A stretch of 64,000 nucleotides of DNA. Origin: Candidatus Omnitrophota bacterium. GTDB taxonomy: Bacteria > Omnitrophota > Gorgyraeia > Duberdicusellales > 4484-171. The position numbers and the translations under genes are program-made. The DNA lies in assembly GCA_021735655.1 (NCBI GenBank), contig JAIPGM010000009.1, positions 4,976-68,975 of the forward strand, in the 5' to 3' direction. Positions 6,380 through 60,270 of this stretch are shown here, piece by piece. Under the pieces are notes generated by a model. It saw only the letters and a list, made by a program, of their open reading frames with translations. It did no database searches and was not told the DNA's origin. The first letter of the stretch is position 1, and every line of letters starts with the position of its first letter.

Positions 6380-6382
6380 AAA

Positions 6383-7717: not shown

Positions 7718-8068
7718 CTATTTATTACCTTCAAGTCCAGCATTAGATTCTAATTCCTTAATGCGCTGATTCATAGCTTCAATCTCATCCTGCATCAGCT
7801 TCGCTTCGGCTTTTAACTCAACTGCCTCCTGCTGTGGTGTAAGCCCGGGAACATACGGTAATCCAAAATAAGGATTTCCGTAAGCGTAACCGCCGGCTCT
7901 TCGCCATCCAAAGCCTCTTCCAAGACCCCTTCCTAATCCACGACCTCTGCCAAAAAATCCACCTCTGACCGGACGCTGCGCACTTCCTGCCGGCAATGCA
8001 CAATAGCCTCTTGCCCCACCGGTCATCGAGCCTAACCCTTGAGGACCTGTTCCATCGAAACCTGGCAT
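7718..8068 (-). CDS. DUF5320 family protein
   Basis: MPGFDGTGPQGLGSMTGGARGYCA N-terminal signature, an RG/GRG-rich middle and a C-terminal coiled-coil (AEAKLMQDEIEAMNQRIKELE). Confidence 0.6.
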   Translation of the reverse strand: MPGFDGTGPQGLGSMTGGARGYCALPAGSAQRPVRGGFFGRGRGLGRGLGRGFGWRRAGGYAYGNPYFGLPYVPGLTPQQEAVELKAEAKLMQDEIEAMNQRIKELESNAGLEGNK

Positions 8069-8126
8069 TTAAATCACCTCCATTTTTTGTTAATGATAAT
8101 CATTTTCATTAATATTTTAAAAAAAA

Positions 8127-37723: not shown

Positions 37724-39419
37724 CTCTCTCCTTTTTTTTATCTTCGCTACTTTTTATTTTAGCCCAACTATCACGCAAACTAACTATTCGATTAAATACT
37801 AATTTATTTAAAGACAAATCAGCCGAATCAACACAAAAGTAACCCTTTCTTTCAAATTGATAGCGTTGGCCGGGTTGAGCATTCTTCAAACTTGGCTCAA
37901 GATAACACTCGTCAATGACCTCTAAAGATTTAGGATTTAAGCCGGTTTTCCAATCCTGGCCGGCCGAAGCCTTGTTGGGATCCCGTTCAGTAAAAAGATA
38001 GTCATAAAGCCTGATTTTGGCCTTTAAAGATTTTTCAGCCGCAACCCAGTGCAAAGTAGCTTTTACTTTACGGCCATCAGGCGAATCACCGCCACGGGTC
38101 GCCGGGTCATAACTACAGTGCAACTCGATTATCCTGCCAGCTTTATCCTTGATCACCTCCAAGCATTTAATAAAGTAGGCATAGCGCAGGCGCACTTCCT
38201 TACCCGGTGAAAGACGAAAAAACTTTTTTGGCGGATCTTCCTGGAAATCGCCTTGCTCGATATATAAAACTTTTGAAAAAGGAACCTTTCTTTTACCCAT
38301 AGCAGGGTCCTCAGGATTGTTAATCGCTTCGAGTTGCTCGATCTTACCTTCAGGATAATTGGTAATGACCACCTTTAAGGGGCGCAACACTGCCATTACC
38401 CGAGGAGCAGTTTTATTTAGCTCTTGGCGAATAGTATTTTCAAGTACAACCATATCGATTATACTGTTAAATTTTGCTACTCCGATGGTTTGGCAAAAAC
38501 TCCTAATTGAACTTGCAGTATAGCCACGTCTACGTAGGCCACTCAAAGTCGGCATCCGCGGATCATCCCAGCCACTTACATATCTACCCTCAACTAATTC
38601 TAGAAGTTTTCTTTTACTTAAAACCGTATGGCTAAGGTTCAAGCGAGCAAATTCAATCTGACGTGGATGATGAACCTCCAACTGGTCAAGTATCCAATCG
38701 TATAAAGGACGATTGTTTTCAAACTCTAAAGTACAAATAGAATGAGTTATCCGCTCAATAGAGTCAGAAAGACAATGAGCAAAATCATACATCGGATAAA
38801 TACACCATTTATCCCTTGTGCGATGATGTCTCACTCGACGAATGCGATAAAGGGCTGGGTCGCGCATATTTAAATTAGGAGAACTCATGTCTATCTTTGC
38901 CCGTAAAACCCTTGCTCCATCTTCAAACTCACCCGCCTTCATTCTCTTGAACAAATTTAAATTCTCAGCAATTGAACGATCTCGATAAGGACTATCTTTA
39001 CCGGGTTTAATTAAGGTTCCTCGATATTCTCTTATTTGATCAGAAGTTAAATCACAAACATAGGCCTTACCTTTTTTGATCAACTTTTCTGCATATTTAT
39101 AAAGTTTAGTAAAGTAATCAGAAGCGTAAAATTTATGCCAACCCCAAGAAAAACCCAGCCAGCGAACATCCCTTTTTATTGATTCAACGTATTCAATATC
39201 CTCCTTAGCCGGATTAGTATCATCAAAGCGCAGATTACACTTTCCCCGATAATCCCGAGCAATACCAAAATTAAGACAAATTGATTTAGCGTGGCCAATA
39301 TGCAAATACCCATTAGGTTCAGGCGGAAAGCGGGTATGGACCTTGGCTCGATTATTGTCCTTTAAATCTTGATCAATAATATCTCTGATAAAATTAGAAG
39401 TTATTTTTGATTCTTCCAT
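37695..39419 (-). CDS. glnS: Glutamine--tRNA ligase
   Basis: [19 protein letters not shown] (HIGH) and [11 protein letters not shown] (KMSKS-equivalent). 574 aa with a GlnRS-type anticodon-binding C-terminal half. Confidence 0.8.
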
Positions 39420-39430
39420 ATAACCTTCGG

Positions 39431-41872
39431 CTATCTCTTAGGTGCTGACTTATTGTCCAACTTCTCAGCGACTCTTACCGCTTCAACACCATCTTTTGCG
39501 TATTTAGCACCTATTGAATCAGCATAAGCTTTATTGACTACCGCCCCGCCAATCATAAATTTACATTTTAAACCTTCCCTCTCGGCGGACTTAACCACCT
39601 CATCCATATTAATCATAGTTGTAGTCATAAGCGCTGAGAGCCCCACAATATCCGGAGAATATATCTTTATATTCTGAATGATCTTTTTAGTCGAAATATC
39701 CTTTCCTAAGTCGATAATCTTAAACCCGTGATTCTTAAGCATCAAAGCTACTATATTCTTACCGATGTCATGGACATCCCCCTTAACCGTAGCTAGAATA
39801 ATTACTCCCTTTTTAGCCCAAGCTAACTTCTGGTTCTTTAAGTAAGGCTCTAAACGGGAGACTCCTTTTTTCATCGCCTCAGCGCTGGCAATTAGCTGCG
39901 GCAGAAAGTATTCTTTTCGATCAAAAAGGTTACCAACCTTTATTATTGCCGGGGTCATTACCTGCTCTATAAGTTTTGACGGTGTCTCCCCCGACTCTAG
40001 AGCCTTTTGAATAAACTCTTCAATTTGGCTTCTATCCCCTTCAATAATCGCAATCGATACATAATCACAAGGAGAAAGCTTCTTTTTGCTTATTCTTTTA
40101 CTGAAGGTTGATTCTTTTTGCTTAGCATAAGCAGCGATAAATTTTTCGCTAGCCTTAGGTTTATTAAATAATAAGTCTTCGGCTAATTTATTCCGTAAAC
40201 CTGGTGAATCCTCAGGATCGGCAATTGCTAAAGTTAGCCCTTTGATTCCGGCCAATTTTAAAAAAACTTTATTAATTAAATGTCTCTGAGGAAGCCCAAA
40301 TGAAATATTCGAAAGCCCAACTATTGTTTTAGCTTTAAAGCTCCTCGTGCACCAGCTGATAGTCTTGAAAACCTCTCCAGCAGCCTGAGCATTCCAAGAA
40401 AGCGGCATCACTAGCCCATCAATTAAAATATCCTCTTTAGAAAATCCTATTTTTTTTGCCGCCTTAAAAACGGCCTCGATTATCGGCTTACGTTCCTTAA
40501 AAGTTTTAGGGAGCTTTTTTCCGGCCAAAGGCAAGATTATAAACATTGCTCCGTATTTTTTAGCTATATTAAGTAGCTTTTTAAGCTTTCGACTTTCTCC
40601 GGAAATAGAATTAATCAAAGCTCGTCCAGGATAGAATCTTAAGGCTTGCTCGATAACTTCAGGATTTGCTGAGTCAATTACCAAAGGCAATGAAGTTGCA
40701 AGTGGCAATAACGATATAACTTCAAGCATCGCCTTTTTCTCATCAACTCTTGGAGCGCCCAAATTTACATCCAAAAGCTTTGCTCCCTGAGCCTCTTGAG
40801 CTTTAGCAAAAGTGCGGATTTGGGTATATTTATTTTGAAGCAACTCGGCTTGCATAGTCTTTTTACCGGTTGGATTTATTTTTTCACCAACAACAATCGG
40901 AAATTTTTCTTTCTCGAAAATAAAAACTCCCCGAGCAGAACTTAAGGCCGCTATCTTTTTTCGCTTAGGAAAAACTGGCTTACTCCTTAAGGCAACTTTT
41001 TTTAGCTTAAAGATATGTTCCGGCGTTGTTCCGCAACAACCGCCGATTATAGTTGCTCCGGCAGTAATTAACTTTTTAGCCGAATCAGCAAAATCTCCGG
41101 GCTTCATATTAAAAACAGCCTTGTTATTAATAAGCTTCGGCATGCCGGCATTTGGTTTAGCTACCAAAGGCACAGTGCTATATGGCCTCATCTTTGAAAT
41201 TATCTTAACCATAGCTTGAGGGCCACTTGAACAATTGCAACCTATAGCATCAGCCCCTAAACTCTGTAAAGTAATTAAGGCACTAACCGGATCATTACCA
41301 TTTAAAGTCCGCCCCCCTGACTCGTAGGTCATGGTTACTATAGTGAATTTATTAGTAAGCTCTTTTACTGCAATCAAGGCGGCTCGGGCCTCTTGAATAT
41401 CAATCATCGTCTCAATAGCAAAAAGATCAACCCCACCCAAAAGCAACCCCTTAACCTGCTCTTTATAAATATCTACGGCTTGATTAAAATCCAAAGAGCC
41501 AAAGGGCTTAATAAACTCACCGGTCGTAGCTATATCACCAGCAACTAAGGCTTTTTTGCCCACAGCCTGGCGGGCTAATAAGGCTAGACGTCGATTGACC
41601 GACACCACATCTTTAATCTTGAAATGGGAAAGTTTCAGGCGATTGGCACCAAAAGTACAAGCATAAACTATATCCGAACCAGCCTTAAGATAGTCCGAAT
41701 GGACACTTTTTGTAAGCTCAGGATTCTTAAGGCACCAACTTTCCGGACAAACTCCTTGAGGCATGCCGCGCTTATGCAACTCGGTTCCGGTTGCTCCATC
41801 AAGCAAAACAACACGCTTTTTTAGAAGTAGTTTGATTCTAGAATTACTCATAGCCTTTGGATGACTCCACAA
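39431..41872 (-). CDS. metH: Cobalamin-dependent methionine synthase core (Hcy-binding, pterin-binding and B12-binding modules; no activation domain)
   Basis: Hcy-domain Cys motifs ([17 protein letters not shown]). Pterin-binding region. B12 cap and Rossmann domain with [10 protein letters not shown] (DxHxxG). 813 aa versus about 1200 for full-length MetH. Confidence 0.75.
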
Positions 41873-42471
41873 ATAGCGGTAACTGATTTCTCAGGAATAA
41901 GTACATATCTATCGGTTATTGAAACTTGGATTTTTTCTAATTGCAAAAGCCGATGAATTGTCTCTTGGTTTGTAAGTGCAAAATCACCATAACCGCAGGA
42001 TATCCGTTTAGGAATCAACTGTTTATTCTCACGTTTAAGTTGCGGTCCAAAATAATCTTGAATCCAGACAAATGAAGCATCAACAGTTTCCGAAGCAACC
42101 GCATCAAAAACAACTCCCCGAGTTAAATCGTTGTCTTTAACATTTGTAATCGCCTTGACTATTTCGGCCCCGGCGGTCGCCCCAATCAAAAGAAGCTCCT
42201 GGCAGTCTTCAAAAACCGACCCAACAAGGTTGCCTTCAAAAATTACCCCTTCGGAAAGCTCTAATTTTGAAACATGCTTCATCTCAATGGCAATTCGCCG
42301 AGCGGCTCCTTTTAGCTGTATAAGCTGAACTGCCTCTTCAATATAGGCCTTAAGCTCTTTTTCCTGCTCAGAAGATATCTTAGTCACCCCCGGTTGATAT
42401 CCTAAGCGGGCATATATTTTCTCAATTGGTATTTTGACTCCGATTTGATTAAAAAATCTTACCTTATTCAT
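41848..42471 (-). CDS. Methionine synthase activation (AdoMet-binding reactivation) domain protein
   Basis: 207 aa. Stand-alone homolog of the MetH C-terminal domain, encoded immediately upstream of the MetH core. Confidence 0.5.
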   Translation of the reverse strand: MNKVRFFNQIGVKIPIEKIYARLGYQPGVTKISSEQEKELKAYIEEAVQLIQLKGAARRIAIEMKHVSKLELSEGVIFEGNLVGSVFEDCQELLLIGATAGAEIVKAITNVKDNDLTRGVVFDAVASETVDASFVWIQDYFGPQLKRENKQLIPKRISCGYGDFALTNQETIHRLLQLEKIQVSITDRYVLIPEKSVTAICGVIQRL

Positions 42472-42493
42472 TATAAAAATTAATCATAGGTTT

Positions 42494-43654
42494 TTAAAAG
42501 GCTGCTTTTAATATCCCTAAAACATCTAAAGTCTCTAATTTTTTAAATGTCCCAATTGGACCAAAAACCATGGCCTTAGAAACTAATAATGAGAGCTCAG
42601 ACTCTTTAACTCCTACTTCACGCAAAGTTTTCGGCATAGCCAAACTATCAAAAAATTCTCGAGTTTTCTTAATTGACTGTTTAGCTAGAGCAAACTTATC
42701 TTCCCCCTCTAGGCCCCAAACATTTATTGCGTATTCAGCAAACTTATCAACCGTGGTTTCATTTAAAACTGCATTCATCCAAAACGGAACAATTATCGCC
42801 AGCCCGACCCCGTGAGTTACATCATAAACCGCACTAACCGCATGTTCGATAGCGTGGGTTGACCAATCACCAATTTTACCATAGCTAAGCAATCCGCATA
42901 AAGCTAGGCTGCTAGCCCACATAATATTTGCCCGGGCCTGATAGTTTTTTGGTTCATTCATGACTACTGATCCATAATGTAGGCAAGTTTTAAAAATCGC
43001 CTCAGCTAATCTATCTTGCAAAAAAGCTCCTGAGACAGAAGAAAAATACTGCTCGATTACATGAACATAAATATCAACCACTCCGGCTGCAGTCTGCTCC
43101 TTAGGTAAGTTAAACATAACCTCAGGATCTAAAACTGAAAATTTTGGCCGAAGGATATCGCTTCCGGCAGCAAGCTTCTCCTGGGTCTGTTCATTGCTAA
43201 TTACGCTATAGCCATTCATCTCTGAACCGGAAGCCGCTAGAGTCAATACCGTGCCTAGAGCTAAGGCCTGTTTTATTTCTGTCTGCTTTGAGAAAAAATC
43301 CCAAGGATCCTGATCGTAAAGCGTACCGCAAGCAACCGCTTTTGCACAATCAATGACTGAACCGCCGCCAACGGCTAAAACAAAGCCCAAATTATTCTCA
43401 CGACAAAGAGCCACCCCCTCCCTAACCGTCTTAATCCTCGGATTAGGCCTAACTCCCGATAGCTCTTTATAAAAAATATTATTCGCTTCTAATATTTTTA
43501 CTATTTTTTGGTAAATACCGTTCTGCTTAATACTCGAACGACCATAGACTATCAGCACTCGATCGGCATATTTTTTTATCTCCGGACCAAGGCTATCAAG
43601 CCGATCCCTACCAAAAAATATTTTCGTATCAACTAAATAGTTAAAATCTAACAT
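42494..43654 (-). CDS. Iron-containing alcohol dehydrogenase
   Basis: Start reassigned to MLDFNYLVDTKIFFG. AVGGGSVIDCAK NAD motif. Conserved His residues in the C-terminal half. Confidence 0.75.
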   Translation of the reverse strand: MLDFNYLVDTKIFFGRDRLDSLGPEIKKYADRVLIVYGRSSIKQNGIYQKIVKILEANNIFYKELSGVRPNPRIKTVREGVALCRENNLGFVLAVGGGSVIDCAKAVACGTLYDQDPWDFFSKQTEIKQALALGTVLTLAASGSEMNGYSVISNEQTQEKLAAGSDILRPKFSVLDPEVMFNLPKEQTAAGVVDIYVHVIEQYFSSVSGAFLQDRLAEAIFKTCLHYGSVVMNEPKNYQARANIMWASSLALCGLLSYGKIGDWSTHAIEHAVSAVYDVTHGVGLAIIVPFWMNAVLNETTVDKFAEYAINVWGLEGEDKFALAKQSIKKTREFFDSLAMPKTLREVGVKESELSLLVSKAMVFGPIGTFKKLETLDVLGILKAAF

Positions 43655-43655
43655 C

Positions 43656-45272
43656 TTACTGAGGCTTTGGATGCTTTCCAAGCATAAGGTTTGTTTGAAC
43701 ACTTAAAGTAGCTGCAGCTGTTAAAAAAATTCCCACCGGAACTAAAAAAATTAAGGCGAAAAATTGAGAAATTTGGTTAAAGAAACCCAGCTTAGATTTC
43801 TTTCTCGGAAAAACTAAACTAGTCAAAACGATTGAAATAATAAAGCATGCTGTCATCAAAGCAAAAATTACAAAAGTTATTCTCGGAGCACTGTAATATA
43901 TTCCGGAATCTGAAAATTCACGACCTGACAGTAAGGCCGGAAGCCAGCCAATGATAAATATAATAAAAGGCCAAACAGCCGGCAAGATTTGGGCCTCAAG
44001 CAACTTAAAGGCACAAATAATTTTTTTTAGAAACGGCATCCGGCCAATCCTTAAAAGGGCTCGCATCACAATCGGTAGATTCTCTCCGGCATAAGCTAAA
44101 TTACATTTTTTCTTATAAAGTTCAGAAACTGAATCCGAAGAATCTCCAGCGATATCCATGGTAATTGGATAAGTAACATACAACGGATTAATGGTGAACG
44201 CACCATTAAAATTAATAAAAGCTTTCCAAAAAAATGATAAATCAGCTGAGATTAAATCGCTTGGCCAAAACTTAAGCTCAAGCAAAGTTGCCAAACTAAC
44301 ACTAAAACTAGAAAAAATAATCAAATTGTCAGGATGAACCGCTTCAATTATTTGAAAAAATGAAGCGGCCGCGTTAAGAACCCTTCCTGGGGCCGAAGCT
44401 CGCCAAAGAGAAACGTCGTAAGCAGCAATCGCTTGAAAACAAGCCAGTTGACGACTAGGCAAAACCATAAAACGATAAGTAAGGCAACTGTAGTGGTCCG
44501 GATTAACTAAAGCTCCGGGCTCTAGAGATGAAGTAATCACATTTTCGTGGGCAATTTTCTTTTCTTTGAAGTAGTTAGCTGCCTGGCTAGCAGCCTGGCT
44601 AAGGATGGCCCCCTTAAAAGATTTCCCGGTTTGAGATTCAGCTGAGCAAGCTACGGTTAAAAAATCAAAAAACTTATCGCGATAACGCTCGATGAGACGC
44701 CGATTACTCAACTTTGCATTCTCGCTAACTCCCGGCTCAAAAGCCAAAACCACTACCATCCTTATTGAAGGAAAGTTACCGCCAATTAAGCTAGTAACTG
44801 TTTTTGAAATCAAATTCTCTTGATTATCACTAACCGGAATTATAATTAAATGATGTATATCATCTAATTGCGGCGCCTTCTGTTTACTTTTCTCTAAAAG
44901 ACGCATTTCTTTTCTATGAATTAAAAATGATATGTCTTGCTTAGTTTTAGATGCCGCCTCTAAGTCATTTAACTCTTTCCAATAAGTATAGATACGATTT
45001 AAGCCTCTTGCCCGCTCCGGCCAATTAGCCTGTGACTCAAGTTCCAAGCGAGAACATCTAAGAACAAAAGATATCGCCATATAAAGAAGACGCAGAAACC
45101 AGTAAAAACTAAAAGCGATAGTAATAACTGCGGCGATAAGTGGCCTCACAAAGCAAACTACAGTCAGCGCCAAAAGAATAGTCCAACTTATAGCTGCTGG
45201 CAAGATTTCAAAAAATCTTTGCAATATTTTATCTAATTTACTTAAATTCTTATATGAAAATTCAAACTCCAT
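43656..45272 (-). CDS. Hypothetical polytopic membrane protein, possibly GT2-like
   Basis: Several TM helices. The HHLIIIPVSDNQENLISKTVTSL segment resembles the IPxYNEE start of family-2 glycosyltransferases. Confidence 0.35.
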   Translation of the reverse strand: MEFEFSYKNLSKLDKILQRFFEILPAAISWTILLALTVVCFVRPLIAAVITIAFSFYWFLRLLYMAISFVLRCSRLELESQANWPERARGLNRIYTYWKELNDLEAASKTKQDISFLIHRKEMRLLEKSKQKAPQLDDIHHLIIIPVSDNQENLISKTVTSLIGGNFPSIRMVVVLAFEPGVSENAKLSNRRLIERYRDKFFDFLTVACSAESQTGKSFKGAILSQAASQAANYFKEKKIAHENVITSSLEPGALVNPDHYSCLTYRFMVLPSRQLACFQAIAAYDVSLWRASAPGRVLNAAASFFQIIEAVHPDNLIIFSSFSVSLATLLELKFWPSDLISADLSFFWKAFINFNGAFTINPLYVTYPITMDIAGDSSDSVSELYKKKCNLAYAGENLPIVMRALLRIGRMPFLKKIICAFKLLEAQILPAVWPFIIFIIGWLPALLSGREFSDSGIYYSAPRITFVIFALMTACFIISIVLTSLVFPRKKSKLGFFNQISQFFALIFLVPVGIFLTAAATLSVQTNLMLGKHPKPQ

Positions 45273-45278
45273 ATCTAT

Positions 45279-46724
45279 TTACCTCTTCTTGCTTAAGTAT
45301 TCTCGATAAGAAAATGGCCTTTCTCGATTCAGGTCAATAACTTCAGCGCAACTTAACTTTTTAGTAAGCGCATCCAAATAATATAACTTTCCATTATCCT
45401 CCAAATAGTGAACTGAAGAATTAGTTTTTATTTTAATAATTTGATTAGGAGCAGCCTCCCCCTCAGCTTTAAGCTCAAAAATAAAAACTTCGTCAGCATC
45501 AGCTAAAACAATATAAGTTCCCTGATAGGCCCAAAAACTCTGAGTAATATCACGACCCTTAGTATAAAACCAGTACCCTTTCGTCGGTGTGGTCTTAACA
45601 TAGGTAGGATCTACCGCCAATAAAGGCCGATAATCCATAATTCCAGCCTGCTTCTTCATCCAAAACAATACCCGTTTAGTCTTTCGATGAAACTCAAGCC
45701 CCCTAACTCCACTTTCGGTAATACGATGCGGCAAATGGTTGCTTAAAAGCTTTCCCTCTTCACCAAGAAAGATAATTAAATCCTCATCTAAAGGTTTAAC
45801 CTCAAAGAATCCTTTATCTCCAAAAAGAAATTTACCCAAAATCGGATCATTTATCAAAACCTTTTGATTTCTTCGAGCATAATTAATACGAAAAAGAGTA
45901 TTAATCTCTTTTAAAACATATATTTTGTTGTTAAAAAGACCATAGCCACGTAAATTGTCTATATAATCAGCCTCTAACGATTGTTCAATTAAATCTATTT
46001 TACTAAGGCTATTGTTCTCAAAAGGAAAAAAATACCTAGACTGTCCTGGCTCCCAAATAATATGCTCAGGGCTTCCGGTAAAAAAACGACTAATATCTTT
46101 AACATTAACATAATCAATATCTTGTTCGATTAAAAGATACTTTTCTCCATTGAAATTTCTAACCCTAGCAATCACCGTAGAACTTTCCTTAATCTTAAAT
46201 AGGGAAACTACCTCGTAATTCGCCAAGGTTGAATCAGAACGCACAAATGATGTTAGAGCTTCTGACTTTGAATCAAAGCTGTAATAATCTCTAAGCTTAG
46301 GACCTTTAGCTAAAATAAAAAATCTACTTCCGGATAATGGGATCAGCTTTTGAAAAGAATCAGAAGATAGTTCGCGGGTTACCCATCTCTGTGGAATCAA
46401 TAAAATTTTATCGAAAACAGATGCTAATTTAGGGAGAGCGGTAATTTTATAATGCCAAGGCTTATAATTTTTTAAGGAAAGTGTGACATCGTATGATCCC
46501 GGCAACATGCCAGATAGGGCCGCTGGAGTTTTCTCGGTAAAACGCCTCCCTTCAACATGAATTGTAGCGCCCGGCGGACTGCTAGAGAGGAAAATAAGAC
46601 CAGCCAAATCACCCTCGCCCCCTGGCCTCATAATTCGGCCAAAACTATATAAAAGAAGTAAAGGACAAAGAATAAGATAAGCTGCTATGAAACTAAAAAG
46701 GAGTGTTTTTCTTAAATAAAGCAT
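45279..46724 (-). CDS. PEGA-domain protein
   Basis: PGATIHVEGRRFTEKTPAALSGMLPGSYDVTLSLKNYKPW matches the PEGA motif. N-terminal TM. Confidence 0.6.
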   Translation of the reverse strand: MLYLRKTLLFSFIAAYLILCPLLLLYSFGRIMRPGGEGDLAGLIFLSSSPPGATIHVEGRRFTEKTPAALSGMLPGSYDVTLSLKNYKPWHYKITALPKLASVFDKILLIPQRWVTRELSSDSFQKLIPLSGSRFFILAKGPKLRDYYSFDSKSEALTSFVRSDSTLANYEVVSLFKIKESSTVIARVRNFNGEKYLLIEQDIDYVNVKDISRFFTGSPEHIIWEPGQSRYFFPFENNSLSKIDLIEQSLEADYIDNLRGYGLFNNKIYVLKEINTLFRINYARRNQKVLINDPILGKFLFGDKGFFEVKPLDEDLIIFLGEEGKLLSNHLPHRITESGVRGLEFHRKTKRVLFWMKKQAGIMDYRPLLAVDPTYVKTTPTKGYWFYTKGRDITQSFWAYQGTYIVLADADEVFIFELKAEGEAAPNQIIKIKTNSSVHYLEDNGKLYYLDALTKKLSCAEVIDLNRERPFSYREYLSKKR

Positions 46725-46753
46725 AATCTAAACCTAAAATAAGTACCTTATAC

Positions 46754-46781
46754 ATTATAACAAAATGTAGAAAAAATGTAA
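46754..46781 (-). promoter_or_regulatory. Sigma70-like promoter with extended -10 upstream of the PEGA gene
   Basis: Minus strand: TTACAT (46781..46776), a 16-nt spacer, then TGT-TATAAT (46762..46754). About 23 nt 5' UTR to the ATG at 46724. Confidence 0.4.
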
Positions 46782-46920
46782 GCCTATTTCCCTTAATAAA
46801 CATTACGCTATTATCTATCCGCTTTCTACCTTGCTACTTTTAAAGGCAATCATATTTTATTTACCTCCGATTATTCAATATGGTAATATAAAATCACCTC
46901 AATAGAATAAAAATAAGACT

Positions 46921-47200
46921 ATGCAAATAAATCTGGCTAAATCTTCTGGTTTTTGTTTCGGGGTAAAAGAGCTGTTAGCATTACCCTATCTAGCTCAAAA
47001 AAAGTTCAGAAGTTACAAAAAGCCGCAGTAGTGGTTCAATCAACTCAAAATTTTGAAAAAAAACGCTTAAAACCGTTAAAAAGCTTACTAAATACATTAA
47101 AAACCTATGGTTTAAAGGAATAAAAAAAGTAGGGATTATAGCTGGAGCTTCAACACCTGAATCTACAACTAAGACAATTATTGAAAAAATACCCGCCTAA
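46921..47200 (+). pseudogene. ispH: ispH (4-hydroxy-3-methylbut-2-enyl diphosphate reductase) remnant with large internal deletion and frameshifts
   Basis: The plus strand reads MQINLAKSSGFCFGVK (IspH N-terminus M.I.LAK.AGFCFGVKRAV). The same locus ends ...NLWFKGIKKVGIIAGASTPESTTKTIIEKIPA* (IspH C-terminus W..GVK.VGITAGASTP). The two pieces are in different frames and only about 280 nt apart, against about 900 nt for an intact gene. It is the only sense-strand feature in the window. Confidence 0.65.
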
Positions 47201-47210
47201 ACAAACAAAT

Positions 47211-47786
47211 CTAAGGAATCCTATTTTTTGCCTTCTTCAATAAAGTATATTCAACATAGCCGCATAAAACTTCCTGCACCTTAGCCGGGGGCGGGACAGC
47301 AAAGTAATGAGAAATGACTGCATGAGCCATCTCATGACCAAGCATGCCAAGAGTTAAGTCTTGATAGGAAATATAGATTGTATTTTTGGAATGAAGATAG
47401 AAAGAACGCTCCGGAAAACTAGAACCAAAATAACTGCTAAACACTGAGCTCAAAGATGACTGATCCGGAAGAATGCTTATCTTGCCGTGAAAGCTATAAA
47501 CATGGATATCGAGGATATCGGAAACTTCCAAATACAAATCATCCATCGCCTGTGCTATGAGAGAGTAAGAATCATTTTTCTGCTTGCCAAAAAAACTGTC
47601 AACATTTCCTAAATAGCTAAAATTTATTTTACTTAACAAAGAAACAACATCTAGCTTGCGAGACCCATAAACCGAAAAGTATTTTCCGGTAGCAAGAAGC
47701 GAAAGGCTACCCTCTTGAGCTAAAACCTTAGGAGTAAATAAAACCCCTAACATGACAATAGACAGTATTAAGCTCTTTTTCATCAA
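47211..47786 (-). CDS. Secreted protein with HExxH motif (putative metallopeptidase-like)
   Basis: Signal peptide MMKKSLILSIVMLGVLFTPKVLAQ. GHEMAHAV. Confidence 0.4.
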   Translation of the reverse strand: MMKKSLILSIVMLGVLFTPKVLAQEGSLSLLATGKYFSVYGSRKLDVVSLLSKINFSYLGNVDSFFGKQKNDSYSLIAQAMDDLYLEVSDILDIHVYSFHGKISILPDQSSLSSVFSSYFGSSFPERSFYLHSKNTIYISYQDLTLGMLGHEMAHAVISHYFAVPPPAKVQEVLCGYVEYTLLKKAKNRIP

Positions 47787-48352
47787 GTTTTAAAATTATC
47801 AAGTTCAACCTGCAAATGATCAAGAAGAGTTAAAAGTTGATCAGCATCTTTTGCTGCTATATGAAAATTCCTGTCTCTTATAAATTTGCTCAAGGAGTTA
47901 AAGCTAGCTTTTAGCCCTAAGTGCTTATCTTTCAATGACCTACACATAGCATCTAAAGATTTAGCAAACGCCTGCAACTGATCATTGCCGCGAATATGAA
48001 AATCTCTTCTAAAATCTGCACGCTGGAGTAAATCAACCTCACGGCGCAGGCGAAAAAGAGGTCCAGCAATTTGATGAGACACAAGCATTGTTAAAGCAAG
48101 AACCCCTAAGCCACTAAAAAATACTACTACCGTTAAATTAATAGCAACTATCGGCAAAATAAAATCCGAGGTTCTTTTAACGGTTACTTTTGTGTTTTCA
48201 ATGGCTACTGTGTTTGAATCACTAGAAAAAAATAATATTCCTCCTAGAATAAGCAACGATGATAAAACAATAATTGAACCGAATTTCATCATAAATCTTG
48301 TCTGAAAATTTTTATCAATAAAGTAATTCCTACGTTTAAATTTTTCTGCCAT
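47783..48352 (-). CDS. HAMP-domain membrane protein
   Basis: Two TM segments flank a short loop. HAMP-like HQIAGPLFRLRREVDLLQRADF. No output domain. Confidence 0.45.
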   Translation of the reverse strand: MAEKFKRRNYFIDKNFQTRFMMKFGSIIVLSSLLILGGILFFSSDSNTVAIENTKVTVKRTSDFILPIVAINLTVVVFFSGLGVLALTMLVSHQIAGPLFRLRREVDLLQRADFRRDFHIRGNDQLQAFAKSLDAMCRSLKDKHLGLKASFNSLSKFIRDRNFHIAAKDADQLLTLLDHLQVELDNFKT

Positions 48353-48365
48353 GACTTCCTCCCTT

Positions 48366-48914
48366 TTATTGGTTAGCTTTAAGGTCTAAACCTTCATAAT
48401 CAATATTAATCTTCACTTTTGTCTTTAAGGACTCTGCCCACTGGTTTATCGCCTCACGTTGTTTTTCATTCAAAATGACCCATTTTATCTGATCATATAC
48501 TTGAGCTAGCTCTTTCTCCGGAAATTGACTATCTTTATTTTTTTTGTAATATCTACGAATATCCTGGTCATTAACCTGAATACCAACAGCCAGTTCTTTT
48601 ATCTTTTTTGATAAAGCAAGTTTAAGTAATGACTGCTCCCAGAAAAGCTGAACGTCTTTTAGAAATTCCGGATCCTTATCCAAACCCAACCTCTCGGCTT
48701 CATTAAGAATTAGTTTGCGGGATATAAACTGATCTAGGAAATCTCGCTGCGATTCAACATCAGAGCTACGAGATAAGGAAGAGTTTAGAGCTTGTTTAAA
48801 CTCCTGCTTACTTACTTCAATATTACCAATCGTAATTACCGGGTGCTCTTTATCTGCTAAGCCGCAACCAACAACTAATAAAATCATTATAATAACAGGA
48901 ATTGCTCTGAACAT
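48366..48914 (-). CDS. SurA/PpiD-N-terminal-domain-like lipoprotein chaperone
   Basis: Start reassigned to MFRAIPVIIMILLVVGCG (lipobox VVGC); an AAGGAGG RBS lies 4 nt upstream. Helical SurA_N-like region follows. Confidence 0.45.
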   Translation of the reverse strand: MFRAIPVIIMILLVVGCGLADKEHPVITIGNIEVSKQEFKQALNSSLSRSSDVESQRDFLDQFISRKLILNEAERLGLDKDPEFLKDVQLFWEQSLLKLALSKKIKELAVGIQVNDQDIRRYYKKNKDSQFPEKELAQVYDQIKWVILNEKQREAINQWAESLKTKVKINIDYEGLDLKANQ

Positions 48915-48977
48915 AGAACCTCCTTTTTTTCCGCTAATCAATCTTTCTTTTATTATACTATTTTATCGGAAGAACTC

Positions 48978-49016
48978 AAAATAAAAAACAGGAAGGTGGA
49001 TGCCACCTTCCTGTTA
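48978..49016 (-). terminator. Rho-independent terminator downstream of tpsA
   Basis: Minus-strand RNA CAGGAAGGUGG-CAU-CCACCUUCCUG is a perfect 11-bp stem, followed by UUUUUUAUUUU. Confidence 0.7.
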
Positions 49017-49043
49017 ATTAAACTCTCTATTGTCAAAATCTAC

Positions 49044-52000
49044 TTACAAATCAGTTGCTTTTTTCTTCTTTTTCTCATCATCGTCTTTGCCGCCAAAATA
49101 AGGAGCTAGAGTCCCTTTGAGGTTAATATTCTGCTCAATGAACTCATAAGCACCACTATCTAGGCTAATACCATCAAAGCCTGACTCATCGGTTACAGTT
49201 AACGGATGATAAGCATAAAAATCGGTGCTTCTAACTGGGGTAACTGTACTAAATCTATAGTTAGCCATCAATTCATAGTAAGTCCTAGAATCACGCAAGA
49301 TACTTGCTAAAAATTGAGCACCGTCAAATTCTGGTAAGAAATCTGGCCAAATCTGCTGAGGTCCTAAGTTAGCTGCCGCAGGGCCAAACAAAGGTGAAGC
49401 ACCTCTGGTGTCGGTATCATCATAAAAGATGTATCCCGGAGGTGTAACATTGGTTAAGTCAATATCTGGCGATGGAAAAACCCCGGTAACTGCTGTAACC
49501 CCAGGTCTAACTATACCTTCAATGGCTCCGCTTACCCCTAAGGTACCACTAGGACCAGCTAAGGTAAAACCAGGAGCAGCGCCACCTATCTCTAGGGTAA
49601 GCCCAGCAACTGGCGTAAAACCAGCAGGAACTGCCCATTTTGAAGGATCTAAATCCACTGCCTGAATATTTACATTTAAAGGATTATAAAAATTATCTGC
49701 ATCTACTGGAACTCCTGCGTTACCAATTCCAATTGTGCCTTCTGGTGTTGAGAAATAAGAATAACTTCCAGCAATTACGTTTGGCCCAGAAACCGGGTCA
49801 ACTACGTAATGTGAAAATACATCTATTCCACCATCGGTCGACCAAGGAGTACCAGTTAAGTCCATCGGAAGCGCTCTTGCGAAATCATTTACCGTGTCAG
49901 GACCAGTTGTTACGTCTGGTTGTACTCCGCTAGGATCCCAGCCGGTTCCGGCATAAATCGAGCCAGTGCGGCTTTCTAAATAAACTCCACCGCGCGGTGC
50001 GATAACTGAGTTAACTGTCATGTCCCCACCACTACTAACATTAATTATCCCATTATTAGCAGCAACTGAAAGACCATAAAGAGTGCCTGCGTCCTCAGTC
50101 AAGGTACCTAGGGTAATGCTGTCTAATTCATTAACGTAGATGTTTCCTACATCCCAAGAGTAAGCACTTAAATAATCAACTGCTGTCATAAATGGCGAAG
50201 CACTGGTACCGATATTGTGACGGGCCAATAACCCGGCAAAATCAGCGCTAACCAGCGAAGTAGCATCACCATAGATATTACCTTCCCAAGCATAGATATC
50301 TACTTCTGAGCTGCCTGTACCGCCAACTGAAGCTGAAATAGAGCTATTAGCAAGGGTTACATCGCCGTTACCAGAGATTAAAGTTGCTCTGGCATCGCCG
50401 TCACCTATCATCTCAGCTGAAACAGTACTATCAGTAATATTTACACCCAAATTAGCAAATAATTCAACTAAAGCTGTATCACTACCACTTAAAGCTTGAG
50501 CTAAAATAGTGCTGCCATTAGTTACGTTAATTTCACCATCTTGGGCGGTTACGCCTATTTCGGCATGACCTTCTCCATCTACGTCAGCAGTAATATCACT
50601 ATTGCTAATATTAACATCGTTAAGGGTATTAATATCAACAAGGGCTATTCCTTCATTGCCTACTAAAGCTTCCAAGGTTGAATCGGTAATTGTTGTACTA
50701 TTCCCAGCAACGCTAAGAATAGTTGCATCACCATCATTGCCAACTGAAGCTATTACTGTACTTTCTATTACCTCTATGTTGCCTTTGTCGGCAGCCAAGT
50801 TAACCGTAGCATCGCCATCATTTACTACTGATGCAGCAAGTGTACTCGGATCAATGGTTATATCATTTGCGGCAAGAACGTTAATCGTAGCATCGCCATC
50901 ATTACCAACCAAAGCTTCCAAGGTTGAATCAGTAATTGTAGTATTGTCGCCAGCTTCTAAGTTAACTGTTGCGTCACCGTCATTACCAACCAAAGCATAT
51001 CCATAATCAGTGTAGGCTTCAACATGACCAGTATCGACCTCGATATCATCTTCAGCTTCGATATTGACAGTGGCTTTGATGTCGCTGTCTTGGATTTCGA
51101 CTCTTTCATCAGCTTCTAGATTGATCTCAGATTTAACCGTACTAGAAGAGATCTTGACATCATCAGCTGATACTATATCGACCTGAGCTTCAATTGTCTC
51201 ATCAGTTACTTCGATGTTTTCTCCAGCTTCAATGTCAATTGTTGATTTTACAGTGCTGTCTTGAATTATTAGGTCATTCCACCAGTTGCCTTCTTCAGGA
51301 TCCCAACCACCGACTACTAGGTCGATCTCGGATTTAACGGTGTCAACGTCATCGCCGTTGGTGATCTCAACGTCATCTTCAGCATCGATGTCAACTGTGG
51401 CTAATACATTACTGTTAACAATCTCCATCCTCTCATCAGCCTTAAGCTCGACTTCAGACTCGATATGGCTGTCGATTGACTTTACGTCATCTGAGGACTT
51501 AAGAGTTACTTCAGATTCGATGGTCTCACCAGTTACCTCTATAGTATCCTCAGCAGTTACATCGACTAAGGCCTTAACGGTTGATTCTTCAATTACCAGG
51601 TCGCTCCAGTTGCTGTCATTGTCACCACTCCAGCCGCCGGCTACCAGATCTATTTCAGCTTTGATAGTTTCACCTTCAGCGTTAGTGATTTCAACGTCAT
51701 CTTGAGCCTCAATCTCAATAGTAGCTAAGATATCGCTGCTTTCAATTTGCAGACGGTCTTGAGCTACTAGTTCAAGTTCGGCTTCTATAGTGCTATCAGT
51801 TATCTTTACATCGTCTGAAGACTTAAGAGTTACTTCAGATTCGATGGTCTCATCAGTTACTTCAATCTTGTCATCGGCAGTTACATCTACCAATGATTTA
51901 ACTGTTGAATCTTCAATTACCAGGTCGCTCCAGTTGCTGTCATTATCACCACTCCAGCCGCCGGCTACCAGGTCTATTTCAGCTTTAACAGTAGTCTCAC

Positions 52001-55000
52001 CTTCAGTGATCTCAACGTCATCTTCGGCGTCAATAGCTACAGTTGCTAGAATATCACTGTCAGTTATTTCTAAACGATCATCAGCTACTAGCTCGGTTTC
52101 AGCTTCGATAGTGCTTTCAGAGATCTTCACATCGTCGCCGGAAGCTATATTAACTGTTGATTCAACAGTCTCACCGGTTACTTCGATCTTGTCATCGGCA
52201 GTGATATCGACCAGTGATTTAACCAAACTGCTGTTGATTATTACATCATTCCACCAGTTACTTGCATTGTTTACCACGATATCAATCAATGAGCCGATAG
52301 TTTTACCGCCGTCATTGGTGATCTCAACGTCATCTTCAGCTTCGATATTGACAGTGGCTTTGATGTCGCTGTCTTGGATTTCGACTCTTTCATCAGCGCT
52401 AATCCTAACTTCGGCCTTAACATCACTAGAAGCAATCTTTACGTCCTCATCGGCACTCAAGTTTACTTCTGCAGTTAAGTCTTCACCGTCTAAGTCGATA
52501 TTAGAATCTTCCAATTCGACTTTAGCCAATACTGTACTGCGTGTTACCTCTATATTGTTGTCAGCTTGGGCATTAACCGTTGCTTGGCCTTTTCCTTCTA
52601 AAATCGCCTCGACTGTACTGTCCTCTATTTTAATGTCATGATCAGCTTGTAAGTTAACTCTTGATTCACCATCAAGATAGTTAATCGCTCTAACCAAACT
52701 GTCATTCTTTACTATTAAATCATTACCAGCAGTAATATTTACACTGGCTACGCCGGTGTCAGAAGGTGGATCGATTGCTCTAACAGTGCTGTTATCCACA
52801 GTCACATTGCCTAAATCGGAATGGATACCAATATAGGCGCCACCATCAGATGAAGGGGCAAGTTTAGAAAAAGCGCTTACTAAGCTATCCTTGATCACTA
52901 TATCATTATCGGCAAGTAAGTTAATCCAGGCTGATGCACCAAGGGCCCTGGCGATAACATCACTTCTTAATAAACCGATTCTATTAGCATCGAATCTAAT
53001 TCTTGATAGTCCACCAAGATTTAACTCATTAGTAACTACCCTTGAGTCAATCACCCTAATATCATCATTAGCATCGAAGAAAATCCTGGCTAAGTAATTA
53101 CCGAACGAATTAGCTCTAACTACGCTACCGTCTCTTAGACCGATGTTTTTACCAGCATGAAACTCAACATTTGCCGGACCATTATTAATTGAGGTAGCTG
53201 CAACTCGTGAGTTTGTTAAACCGATATTATCCCCAGCATCTATTGTAATAATTGCTGAGGCTACTCCATCAAGCACCTGGCTCAACAAATCGCTGTTGTT
53301 CAGAAATACATCACTAGCAGCATCAATATCTATCTCAGCATGGCCGGTGTTTGACACTATTGCTTTCACTTCACTGTCATCGATTGTAATATCGCCATTC
53401 TCGGTCGAAATATCTACATAAGCATTACCGTTCAAAACTGATGCTGTAATGTAGCTTGTGTCTATGGCAATGTTATCACCGGCAGATAGATCAACTGAAG
53501 CATCGCCGTCACCCTCAACGGTTGCACTTACAGTGCTGTCAGTGATGGTTAAATCTCCATTCTCAAGTGTACCCGATGTAGGAGGAACAGGTTCGTAAGG
53601 AGTGGTCCAATCACCAGCTACCATTTTAACCGTAGCATTACCGTTTCCGGTTACATTAGAAGAAACTGTACTATTAGCAACACTAATGTTCTCACCTTCA
53701 GCAAAAACCTCTGCATTACCAGTACCGGTTTGAGCTGAAACTGTACTTGAATCGTTTATATTAAGATCAGCGCCATGGAAAGTGCTGTTATACAAATCTG
53801 GATCAGGAAAATTTATCATAATCCCATCTGCATGCAATCCGGCGCTAAGTTCAACATTGGCATCGCCGGTTCCTTGAGTGATTGCGCTAACTGTGCTGTC
53901 AACAACATCGATCCCCTGCCAAGCACGGACAGTTGTTGTAGTATCACCATTGCCAGCTGTGAAAGCTCTGACTATGCTGTTGTTTTGTATTGCGGTATTG
54001 CCAGAAGTTCCAAAAAAGACTGTTGAATCTCCGTCATTACCAACAGTGGCTTCGATTGTACTGTTATCAACTGTTTGAGAGGCAATCGGCCCATGAGTAA
54101 GCAGTGAAACTTCAGCATCACCGTCATTGCCAATAGCCGCTGAAACAGTACTATCTAAAACTTGTAACGGCCCAGCCGATCTTAAAACAACACTAGCGGT
54201 GCCATTTAAAGCTGAGGCCGAAATCAAACTCGGGTCTATAGTCAGAGTTCCGTCGGCAATCATATTTCCAGCAGTTAAATCAACTGAAGCATTGCCAGTG
54301 CCTACGACAGTAGAAGTAATATCACTATCGGTTACAGTAACATTTGTACCAGCATCTACATCAATCGAAGCATCGCCATCAAGGCCAATTCTAGCTAAGA
54401 TATCGCTATCGACTATCGAAACTAGACCATTAGTTGCATTTGCAATAACTGTTGCATCTCCACCGCCGCGGACTCTTGAACGAATTAGGCTATTGTCCCT
54501 AATGGAGATTCCTCTTCCCGGTGTTGTTAAGCTAACTGAAGCATTTCCATTGCCATTAACCCAAGCATCAATGACGCTTGAGTCGTACACACTGATTCCA
54601 TTGTCAGCATCAGCAGTAATCAAAGCATTTCCATCGCCCGCACGAAAAGCCTCAATAGTTCCATCTACAAAAAGAGTTCCACTGTTAACGTCTAAATTAA
54701 TAACTGCATCATCAGCTGGACCAGATCCAGTTGCCAAAACTGAATAAGCATAAGTATCTCCACCGGTAATAATATCGACTACACTCCCTAGAGCCTGGAT
54801 ATCCCAAAGATTTACACCGTCTAACTCGTTAATCCATACATCGCCACCTAAAGCAATCGCTTGCCAGATATCATCTACGTTAGTGTCAATATGATCACCT
54901 GGGACACCAATAGTACCAGCTGCATTCATGTAAAGATTTGGAGCTGTTAAATTAATGCGATTACCATTAGTATCGAGAATATCGCCTGCAGAACTAGTTA

Positions 55001-58000
55001 AACGAATATTATCGCCAGCATTAATAACACCTAAAGAAATATTACCAACTGCATTAATATTAGCATCATGACCAGCCGTAACAGTGCTATTCGATACCAC
55101 AACCTGACCATCAGCGTCAATATTTACATCATAACCTGCGGTCATATCACTTGAACCATTCATGATAGTATCTCGACCGGTGACAACGTTAATACTTCCG
55201 TCAGAAAGTAACGCCGAGCTTTGGCTCATGATTAAATCCTGAGCTGCATAGATATCAACCAATCTGCCTGAGCGGATAGTTGAATTATTGTTCATAAGAA
55301 CATCTCTCTGGGCATCTACGTCAACCCAAGCTGTACCTAAAATATCTGCATTGTTAAACATCCTTAAGTCTGCATCAAGGTTTACATCAACAATTCTGGC
55401 TTCAATTGATGAGTTGTTATGCATACCTAAACCAAAAGCGTCAATGCGTGCATTAGTGGCATTAATTGCTGAAGTATTATACATTCTCATAAGATTAGCC
55501 ACATCAATCGTTACATTTGTACCTGAGATAGATGATCTATTATTCATTGTAAAATTATCTGGCCCTGCTCCATCACCTACGTTTACAAATATATCAGTTC
55601 CGGTAATCGAAGATGTGTTATTCATCTCCATATAATCATCGGCTGAAACATTCACCGTAGCACCATGGATAAGAGCATCGCCGTTCATAGTTAAAGTATC
55701 ATTGCCAGATCCATTGCCAGCTGAAACATTAACTATACCGCGTGTGCCAATAGTGCCTGTATTGTGGACTAGATCGTTATCGGCATGTACATTAACTGTA
55801 CCTGAGCCAAGGCTGATAACATCAGCGTTAACTGTCATATCAGCTCCGGGGCCAGAACCATTAGCTGCTAAACTAACATCACTATTTCCAACAACATCAG
55901 CATTAACTGTCATTGGCGAACCAGTAGTAATATCAATATTTCCACTACCAAAGTTCTTTACGGCATATCCCCATCCTGGCAAATCATTGAGGGCTATAGC
56001 ACCCTTATTGCGAATAGTGATATCACCGCTTGAATCAGGATCGCGTACCTGTGCGCTTAAACTGCCAATTCGAGTTTTCAAATCAATTGAAGTCTTTGCA
56101 TCAAGTATCGCTGTATCAGAAATGATGTTTGGCCCAAACCCACTATTACCTATAATAGAGCCGGTAAAGTTAAATGGATAAACATCGTAGCCCATTGTCA
56201 AAAGAATAACATCAGTTGCAATTAATTGGTTAATCGCTAAGTCAGTTAGCTCATTTAAATTAATAAGCCCGCCAACGCGACCCTCTAAAGTTTCTATCTC
56301 GGTCTCGATTCCATTACCTAAACCAGCGAGACCAACATTACCGTCAACATCAAAGGCAAGTGTGTCAGCTACAATATCAGTGCCGATGTCGCCTGAGCCC
56401 TGCTCCTGCACATCACCTGAACTGATTAGCTTAAATTTCAGCCCCGGCTGATCTAAATTATTAATTGTGATAGTTCCGGCGCTACTTGAACCGATATTGA
56501 TAAAACCAGAAGTAATCAAATTGTAGATTTCATCATTAGAAAGCCTAAACTGACCATAAGCTAAATGTGCGGCTAGAGCAATTGTCTGAGCAGCGCTTGG
56601 GGCAATAGTAATATCTGCCGTGCCGGCATCTACGATACCGTCAACATTAATGTCATCAGCGCTTATGTAGACTTCTCCGTCAGTTGCTCCAGTTGTATCT
56701 ATAACCGAACCATTTTGCAAATCATAGAAACCAGTAGTATCACCATCGCTATCAGCTGAACCGGTAAAGCTTCCACCACCGGTGTAAACATCTCCACCAG
56801 AACTATGGATAATATCACCTACGGCAGCCAAAATTACATCTCCGCCGCCACTATTGATCAAAGCATTAACATAAAGGTTAGGATCATCAACTACGGCTAT
56901 ATCAATAAGTCCGTTGTTAGTAGTAATCGCACCATCAAGCCATAAATCACCAGAGTTAATCAAACTGAAGCTATCTCCGTCAAATCCACCAAAATGCATT
57001 GCACCAGCATGATACATGGCGGCTCTTTGAGCAGTAATAGACATATTGTTTGATCTTAATTCAAGAGCACCATTTGTACCAAAACCGATATCACCACCGG
57101 CATTAAAATCTATGGTATTGGCTGATATATCAAAGTTAGTAATACCACCTGCAACCTTATCAATTCCATCAACAGCATTGCCACTATCATAAGCATCATT
57201 GATATTTCCACCGGCCGTAACTGTTACTGTTCCTAATGCAGGAATAGCTGAACCAGTAAAAGTACCATCAGTTGAAACCCTAGTAACATAAGCATCTTGG
57301 GCAGCAGTTAAGTCAATATCTCCGCCGTCAGTAACTACGCTGCCTGTTTGACTAATAGCCAAATCTCTTCCAGCATCAAGACCAACATTGCCAGCGCTTG
57401 AATCAACAGCAGCATTTACTGACAAATCTCCATCAGCACCAGCTGCAGCTAAACTAATATCGCCCAAGGCTAAAACATCAGAATTTACTGTTAAAGGAGA
57501 AGCTGTAGAAATATCAACTGCTCCACCGATATTATTAACACCACTACCGGCGATAGTTAGATCTCCAGTATTATCAATTTCTATATTTCCTGAAATCGTA
57601 TTAAGAGCTTCTAAATTACTTACCTGTGTTTCTAAAGCATCGCCGGAACCGATTCCTTGAGCTGCAGAAATGCTTAAAGAATCAGCGGTGATATCAGGAG
57701 TAGTGGCACTATTAGCATCTACTACTGCCCCATCACTTGAATTTATATTAACATTTACACCACTCAATCCAGTTGTAACTGTTGTTGAAGTGGCGCCTAA
57801 AGGATCGCTTCCTACCTCATAAGATGCTTTTAACCACGCATCACTTCTGGCAACATTTGAAACCCTGACTTCATCAATCTGGCCTTCAGTTAAATAATTT
57901 GTATCACCCCAACCGCCAATCATAAAGTCGGTAGCAGTATCGACATCGCCTGATGAAGTTGCAAAACCAATATTGTCACCTGCGCCATCTACATACAAAC

Positions 58001-60017: not shown

Positions 60018-60270
60018 TTAAACCCTCCAGGTTTTTTATTTGATATTGTTTTGACTATTTGTTTCATTTACCCTGATTTATAAGATAAAAAAAGACAAAC
60101 TGTAAGCGGTTACAGTTGATATTAATATGTAACATATTTTTTCTGAAAATTCAAGGAAACAGACATTTTTTCTCGTATTCCCGCTACGCTAATTTGAAGG
60201 GTTGCTTAAAGGCAAGCCCCATGGTTTTTCCCGGAACCACTGTCTTTCCTAGTTCGCTTACACCAAGCTC

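Follow-up and report, generated by a model that had tools for sequence, protein, structure and literature searches.

IspH (LytB) is the last enzyme of the MEP pathway and is normally essential in bacteria that use this route; when an essential gene does decay, the usual cause is functional replacement. The ligands of the [4Fe-4S] cluster in E. coli IspH are Cys12, Cys96 and Cys197, and His41, His74, His124, Glu126, Thr167, Ser225-Asn227 and Ser269 are the residues of substrate binding and proton relay. Omnitrophica have been reported with the non-mevalonate pathway only (PMC5383146), and the MEP module (M00096) is complete or near-complete in Omnitrophota, which are described as ultra-small, with reduced genomes and host-dependent traits (PMC10066038). 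M. tuberculosis has two IspH homologues, LytB1 and LytB2 (PMC4550268), and bacteria that have neither isoprenoid-precursor pathway are known, e.g., OD1 (PMC5383146).

We analyzed a locus within a 64-kb stretch of DNA (the window) from an Omnitrophota metagenome-assembled genome (MAG). The proteins of the window run from MCF7908575 to MCF7908636 and include the PEGA-domain protein MCF7908627.1. A first-pass annotation, made from the letters alone, had guessed at an uncultivated, reduced-genome lineage, which fits both the MAG and the way the phylum is described (PMC10066038). At this locus, ispH is represented by about one-third of a gene, broken over three reading frames, in the place where relatives of the organism carry an intact copy.

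Three pieces of IspH in three frames and what they lack

A large protein collection contains 16 homologues of the PEGA protein, and the loci of seven were compared, among them L002 (ERZ24794671 NODE_404), L005 (GCA_018826075.1, JAHKAJ010000035), L009 (JGI 3300009374 Ga0118720_1015447), L010 (GCA_964577045.1, CAZNWL010000052) and L022 (Logan ERR14790928_18152). The features to which the text refers are as follows.

45279-46724, minus strand: gene of the PEGA-domain protein, 481 aa (MCF7908627.1), left-hand synteny anchor
46754-46782, minus strand: divergent promoter of the PEGA gene, CTTACA-17-TATAAT with TG, conserved in L002, L009 and L010
46876-46896, plus strand: ispH upstream element CAATATGGTAATATAAAATCA, 21 nt, common to the intact L010 gene
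46921-47200, plus strand: whole ispH pseudogene, 280 nt versus 840-885 nt in intact orthologues
46921-46968, plus strand: Block A, frame 1, start codon and codons 1-16 (MQINLAKSSGFCFGVK), from translation, tblastn and alignment to solved IspH structures
46965-46968, plus strand: A4 run, -1 frameshift after codon 16, frame 1 to frame 3, from DNA alignments
46969-46998, plus strand: continuation in frame 3, codons ~17-26 (RAVSITLSSS), from translation, tblastn and DNA alignment
46998-47102, plus strand: Block B, frame 3, residues ~146-184 (KKVQKLQKAAVVVQSTQNFEK..KSLLNTLK), tblastn E=3.4e-5
47029-47031, plus strand: premature TAG in the original ATG frame, ending a 36-codon ORF, from translation
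47081-47200, plus strand: Block C, frame 2, residues ~239-279 (KYIKNLWFKGIKKVGIIAGASTPESTTKTIIEKIPA and stop), tblastn E=1e-8 and Pfam match
47121-47123, plus strand: TAA ending frame 3, from translation
47211-47786, minus strand: 191-aa gene, convergent with the ispH remnant, right-hand synteny anchor

Three-frame translation of positions 46860-47260 resolved the stretch at 46921-47200 (plus strand) into three collinear pieces in three reading frames, corresponding to residues ~1-26, ~146-184 and ~239-279 of an IspH of 279-294 aa. Frame 1 reads MQINLAKSSGFCFGVK from the ATG at 46921 and meets the TAG at 47029-47031 after 36 codons; frame 3 reads RAVSITLSSSKKVQKLQKAAVVVQSTQNFEKKRLKPLKSLLNTLK up to the TAA at 47121-47123; and frame 2 reads KYIKNLWFKGIKKVGIIAGASTPESTTKTIIEKIPA up to the stop at 47198-47200. 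Every frame is now stopped, the longest ORFs have 36 and 56 codons, and no uninterrupted ORF of the ~280-316 codons that span the three-lobed IspH fold is left.

The family assignment was examined with profile and translated searches, in which raw and spliced frames alike resembled the LYTB family (PF02401). The raw C-terminal frame matched positions 233-266 of the 267-position profile (E=4.1e-07, 30 bits), above the gathering score of 24.5 bits; the raw N-terminal frame matched positions 1-25 (E=0.011), and a hand-spliced 93-aa remnant gave E=2.6e-12 and 47 bits. Compared with a large protein database, the same 93 aa produced no scored match, since too few words were in common. When the IspH of L022 was compared with the whole 64-kb window by tblastn, residues 1-27 (E=1.5e-6), 146-180 (E=3.4e-5) and 241-274 (E=8.7e-7) produced collinear plus-strand matches here and nowhere else in the window, and the IspH proteins of L005, L010 and L011 gave the same three-match pattern. 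The retained blocks are 55-70% identical in amino acids to the intact syntenic IspH of related Omnitrophota. Block A, whose DNA is 75-81% identical to that of intact orthologues, keeps the first cluster-ligand cysteine motif, GFCFGV (46948-46965; E. coli Cys12); Block B keeps the QST/QTT motif (VVVQSTQN in the remnant; the E. coli Thr167 region); and Block C keeps the AGASTP motif and the natural stop.

The lesions that disable the gene are a -1 frameshift in an A run, two internal deletions and premature stops. Where the remnant reads AAAA, the intact genes of L005, L010 and L007 have a longer run (at least 5 A), and the DNA alignments with L005 and L011 place a one-base gap at 46965-46968. 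To assign residues to the deletions, the IspH of L022 was aligned to the Aquifex structure 3DNF (E=2.7e-60) and to E. coli 3KE8 and related entries (E~4e-43). The first deletion, of ~360 nt, covers residues ~27-145 and takes His41, His74, Cys96 (DATCP), His124 and Glu126 (HDEV); the second, of ~160 nt, covers residues ~185-238, shifts the frame, and takes Cys197 (NTICxPT) together with GSKTSANT. Thus, only the Cys12 motif is left of the three cysteine motifs, DATCP and NTICxPT having no counterpart. The set of substrate-binding and proton-relay residues is likewise broken: IVHNE, RAHG, HDEV and GSKTSANT are gone, and the only substrate motifs kept are those of the Thr167 region (QSTQN) and the Ser269 region (AGASTP).

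Since two of the three [4Fe-4S] cysteines and most of the substrate-binding residues are missing, the remnant is, judged by what it can still encode, unable to bind the cluster or the substrate and enzymatically dead. It still has a start codon, the upstream element and the natural stop, which might be taken to favor a gene that works through split subunits or programmed frameshifting; however, Cys96, Cys197, His41, His74, His124, Glu126 and Ser225-Asn227 are uncoded in any frame and at most ~95 of ~280 residues remain, and we give such a gene next to no chance. In these respects the first-pass annotation read the locus well. It had described a degraded ispH whose enzyme is lost here, as the lesions and missing catalytic residues confirm; it had recognized N- and C-terminal pieces in different frames with intervening stops, as translation, Pfam and tblastn also found; and it had put the loss at ~600 nt, where orthologue lengths (840-885 versus 280 nt) give ~560-600 nt. 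The middle piece, Block B, had gone unnoticed.

The same annotation had called the remnant the only sense-strand feature, and this agrees with the coding layout of the window. All 50 substantial family-supported ORFs lie on the minus strand; each plus-strand ORF of at least 120 aa falls inside a minus-strand gene; between the genes, too, most open frames run on the minus strand; and the 64-kb window contains no tRNA genes and no Rfam matches. Such a strand bias, with every credible gene in 64 kb (~50 and several small gap genes) on the minus strand, is unusually strong. Three other features of the window deserve mention. A 731-aa protein (21937-24132, minus strand) joins Radical_SAM and LAM_C domains (lysine-2,3-aminomutase-like) to a C-terminus of the D-Ala-D-Ala-ligase-type ATP-grasp; this fusion is uncommon, and its gene adjoins that of an LD-carboxypeptidase. 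Small glycine/arginine-rich open frames (e.g., MPRGDGTGPFGQGSGTGRGMGRGRG...) at 6380-6863 and 7643-8126 (minus strand) adjoin two Nitro_FeMo-Co (dinitrogenase cofactor-binding-like) genes and a small ferredoxin-like frame. The 191-aa protein encoded next to the remnant (47211-47786, minus strand) has no Pfam match, a signal-peptide-like N-terminus and the sequence HEMAH (HExxH) near its C-terminus, and may be an unclassified small metalloprotease.

The locus in related Omnitrophota

We then compared gene order around the PEGA gene. The window reads BaxI-PilZ-NYN-(ShlB-giant protein-SurA_N-like-189 aa-191 aa)-remnant-PEGA. In L022, an outgroup with 47% PEGA identity, the order is BaxI-PilZ-NYN-ispH-PEGA, with ispH (279 aa) on the opposite strand, and in L010 (55%) it is HMGL-PilZ-NYN-ispH (294 aa)-PEGA. 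L005/L006 (57%) read giant protein-SurA_N-like-189 aa-190 aa-ispH (284 aa)-polyprenyl synthase-PEGA. In L007/L008 (57%), ispH lies at the far end of an isoprenoid cluster directly upstream of PEGA, composed of phytoene/squalene synthase, two lycopene-cyclase-domain proteins, polyprenyl synthase, UbiA prenyltransferase and flavin oxidoreductase, and in L011 (36%, also an outgroup), ispH and polyprenyl synthase are located beyond PEGA, on its other side, at a distance of two genes. In the closest relatives, L002/L003/L004 (66%) and L009 (64%), NYN is followed directly by PEGA, and the gap of 105-182 nt between them holds the PEGA promoter and no trace of IspH. An intact orthologue is therefore in place in L005/L006, L010 and L022, and within the same cluster in L007/L008 and L011. 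These gene orders show an ancestral arrangement for this Omnitrophota family, which we reconstruct as BaxI-PilZ-NYN-ispH (opposite strand)-PEGA.

The remnant has the position and orientation of the intact ispH in L005, L010 and L022, divergent from PEGA, and both its ends abut the same neighbors as the ispH of L005. Compared with L005, the 191-aa, 189-aa and SurA_N-like proteins are 62-64% identical, with 64% for the 191-aa protein and the L005 gene that abuts intact ispH, and the 538- and 207-aa proteins are 52-55% identical; the NYN protein has 71-90% identity to its counterparts in relatives. Conservation of the PEGA promoter marks the intergenic region as orthologous, and the 21-nt element upstream of the remnant would probably be the -10 region of the old ispH promoter. 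Because position, orientation and upstream sequence all match the intact ispH loci, the remnant is best read as the original gene in a decayed state and not as a stray fragment, and we put the probability that it is the ancestral ispH decayed in place at roughly 0.9; none of the observations speaks against a pseudogene.

It had been proposed that another ispH in the genome would make this a trivial duplicated fragment. That does not follow, since the remnant sits at the ancestral orthologous position. Short gene fragments do arise by duplication, and a stray partial copy of an intact ispH elsewhere would never have been a working gene at this site. A fragment of that kind should lie outside the ancestral locus and derive from an intact parent gene; the remnant instead occupies the exact position and orientation of the intact genes of L005, L010 and L022, keeps a start codon, a natural stop and the upstream element common to L010, and abuts L005-type neighbors at both ends. 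Moreover, its three separated parts follow the order of the gene, as internal deletions would leave them, rather than the copying of a single fragment. A stray duplicate is accordingly very improbable.

A comparably slim prospect is that the lesions were made by the assembler or by a mixture of strains, with ~570 nt collapsed or skipped in a real population whose ispH is intact. The window does come from a MAG, and the organism is known from one sequencing run; a look-up of the 190-aa neighbor found no other samples that carry it. Nevertheless, the Logan contig SRR12088349_28386 (9,069 nt), the product of a second assembler, is 100% identical to positions 38784-47852 of the window, a span that includes the remnant and both neighbors, and it has no gene calls in the remnant gap. 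This comparison tests the assembler and not the sample, because the contig is probably built from the same reads as the MAG. An artefact would also have to account for at least three separate lesions and for substitutions at five highly conserved positions, the junctions have no long repeats that would cause a collapse, and two sister lineages, represented by six contigs (five from different samples), are likewise without ispH at this locus.

No polyprenyl synthase remnant was found in the window, and a deletion of that gene in the window lineage need not be assumed, since L010 and L022 also lack it at this locus. Across lineages, the PEGA-adjacent isoprenoid cluster shrinks in steps, with nine genes at the upper end, then two, then one, then a remnant and finally none. 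A repeated linkage of ispH to isoprenoid-using genes was observed in L007/L008 (1-5819), L011 (4500-8903), L016 (3543-6579; CP070797.1) and L018 (2617-4541), the linked genes being a 346-aa polyprenyl synthase, UbiA prenyltransferase, flavin oxidoreductase, phytoene/squalene synthase and paired lycopene-cyclase-domain proteins of ~100 aa. In the collection copy of L016, a complete 1.5-Mb Omnitrophota chromosome, ispH is interrupted at ~6460-6570 by a run of N, which is masking and not a biological lesion, so that it does not count as a second pseudogene. We also considered whether the PEGA-adjacent IspH is a special type of paralogue, as L005, L007 and L010 form a separate long branch; this was rejected, since L022 has an IspH of the ordinary Omnitrophota type beside PEGA, and it is this protein that the remnant resembles.

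Between NYN and the remnant, the window has an extra block (47211-62001, minus strand) that encodes a ShlB/FhaC-type transporter, a secreted giant protein of 3,657 aa, a SurA_N-like protein and two small proteins. L005 (1-4010) has the giant, SurA_N-like and two small proteins in the same place, at 50-64% identity, and its locus ends inside the giant gene; in L002, L009, L010 and L022 the block is absent, and NYN abuts ispH or PEGA. Since this distribution does not follow the similarities of the PEGA proteins, the block was inserted or lost more than once. The contig CAZNWL010000052.1 (L010, which is also L014) carries the title "uncultured Planctomycetia bacterium"; this label is probably a taxonomic mis-assignment, since the contig groups with the Omnitrophota relatives in both gene order and proteins.

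Age of the decay and losses in the clade

How long ago the gene broke can be gauged from what survives of it. Set against 121 aligned intact IspH sequences, the remnant covers 38 columns that are at least 90% conserved; it has the consensus residue at 33 of them and is changed at the other 5. At the DNA level, its blocks have 62-81% identity to intact orthologues, which are 62-77% identical to one another. The GC content of the remnant is low (0.33) but not diagnostic, as the intact genes of L022 and L011 share this value. The decay appears to be young relative to the lineage splits, because the retained blocks resemble intact orthologues as closely as these resemble one another; and since the remaining sequence has drifted little, selection probably acted on ispH during most of the period after the lineage split off.

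The PEGA identities are 64-66% in all pairs among the window lineage, L002 and L009, so that the three are about equally distant and the values give no branching order. The case for independent losses consequently leans on how fresh the remnant is: over the distance between these lineages, neutral drift would have left nothing recognizable, and the lineages of L002 and L009 therefore probably lost ispH independently of the window lineage, which would make at least two losses in the clade. No loss of ispH was seen in the sister clade (L005, L007, L010) or in the outgroups. Since losses recur in this clade and are absent from the sister clade and outgroups, the pattern suggests that this copy of ispH became dispensable in the clade.

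Together, these observations give a simple course of events. An intact ancestral ispH stood between the NYN side and PEGA, on the opposite strand. It was then disabled by the -1 frameshift in the A run after codon 16, the deletion of ~360 nt and the frame-shifting deletion of ~160 nt. This decay would be recent, and the sister lineages L002 and L009 would have lost ispH separately, by complete removal.

Isoprenoid supply and comparison with known systems

Among the family-assigned genes of the window there are no MEP or mevalonate pathway genes. The window also encodes an LD-carboxypeptidase, an outer-membrane two-partner secretion system, MetH and GlnRS, and since its genes point to a fairly self-sufficient cell, whose Gram-negative-type envelope requires polyprenyl carriers, we favor a functional ispH elsewhere in the genome, either a second or an acquired copy, as the most likely situation, with somewhat better than an even chance. 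A mevalonate substitute, which the first-pass annotation had offered as an option, is unlikely because surveys report Omnitrophota as using the MEP route only, with the module complete or near-complete (PMC5383146, PMC10066038); taken together, the mevalonate route and an intact allele in part of the population seem quite unlikely.

Searches were made for the copy that a functional ispH elsewhere would require. IspH relatives were ranked against the L005 IspH, and 7,834 passed E<=1e-30; among the best 120 of these 7,834, none of the 20 NCBI-sourced sequences falls in the accession range of the MAG (MCF79085xx-86xx), all 20 having MBM, MBU, MCK, MCM, MDD, MDP, MEW, MFA, MFH or HTZ accessions or none. 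This is a weak negative, since it covers 120 of 7,834 strong matches. A scan of a species-representative genome collection with the window PEGA protein, the L005 IspH and an IspH consensus brought up no IspH loci beyond those of L005, L010 and two further Omnitrophota; three exact PEGA peptide patterns did not recover the window's own genome, which is absent from that collection or masked. Two candidates for an ispH of L002 were rejected. P0106 comes from the same assembly as L002 (ERZ24794671) and belongs to another organism, since its contig differs in coverage (4.4 versus 13.8) and GC (0.35 versus 0.41); P0028 comes from an unrelated JGI sample.

We consider it doubtful that the lineage has no IspH at all and takes IPP/DMAPP or polyprenyl lipids from a host or neighbors, a dependence that the first-pass annotation had entertained, or uses a bypass. 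The ancestral copy is dead in the window and absent from the L002 and L009 loci, no IspH of the MAG appeared among the 20 accessions checked, Omnitrophota are reported to be ultra-small and to have host-dependent traits (PMC10066038), and other bacteria, such as OD1, lack both pathways (PMC5383146), all of which is in line with such a loss. On the other hand, that accession check reached only the best 120 of the strong matches, the MEP module is reported as complete or near-complete in Omnitrophota (PMC10066038), and the cell looks metabolically capable, with an envelope that needs undecaprenyl phosphate (LD-carboxypeptidase, two-partner secretion, MetH, GlnRS). Furthermore, the decay of essential genes usually follows functional replacement, and bacteria with two IspH proteins exist (PMC4550268). 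That the whole subclade, i.e., the window organism with the lineages of L002 and L009, abandoned IspH and is unable to complete the MEP pathway is unlikely. If it were so, these bacteria would depend on hosts or neighbors for IPP/DMAPP or polyprenyl lipids or would have an undescribed bypass of the last step, and the remnant would be a loss caught in progress.

As it stands, the remnant is an ordinary pseudogene that is well documented because its relatives display the stages side by side: the nine-gene isoprenoid cluster of L007, ispH with polyprenyl synthase in L005, ispH alone in L010 and L022, the wreck in the window, and nothing in L002 and L009. Should the rest of the genome lack IspH, the locus would be concrete evidence, at the level of a gene, of one specific nutritional dependence in Omnitrophota, for which a host-dependent way of life has until now been argued chiefly on the basis of gene content and cell size, and the lineage would be one in which to seek a replacement for the last MEP step.

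Set against the systems described so far, the remnant agrees with IspH/LytB (PF02401) in keeping the motifs GFCFGVK(R)A, VVVQSTQN and AGASTP in the right order at an orthologous locus, but it differs in that about one-third of the gene, in three frames with stops, makes it a relic and not a functional member. The intact syntenic genes of L005, L010 and L022 have the same position, the same opposite-strand orientation and a conserved upstream sequence, whereas they are uninterrupted over 279-294 codons; in L005 and L007, ispH is further accompanied by polyprenyl synthase, and in L007 by additional isoprenoid genes, of which the window has no trace. In mode of loss, the remnant resembles the unitary pseudogenes of gene-losing bacteria, in which, as here, an ancestral gene is disabled in place by a homopolymer frameshift and deletions; the complete removal seen in the sister lineages of the window organism belongs to the same picture. 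Unlike the usual unitary pseudogene, however, the gene hit here is one that MEP-pathway bacteria can normally not do without, and something must therefore make it dispensable. M. tuberculosis, with LytB1 and LytB2, offers a precedent for a second ispH that renders one copy expendable (PMC4550268), although for the organism studied here the searches above showed no second copy, and the two copies of M. tuberculosis are both intact.
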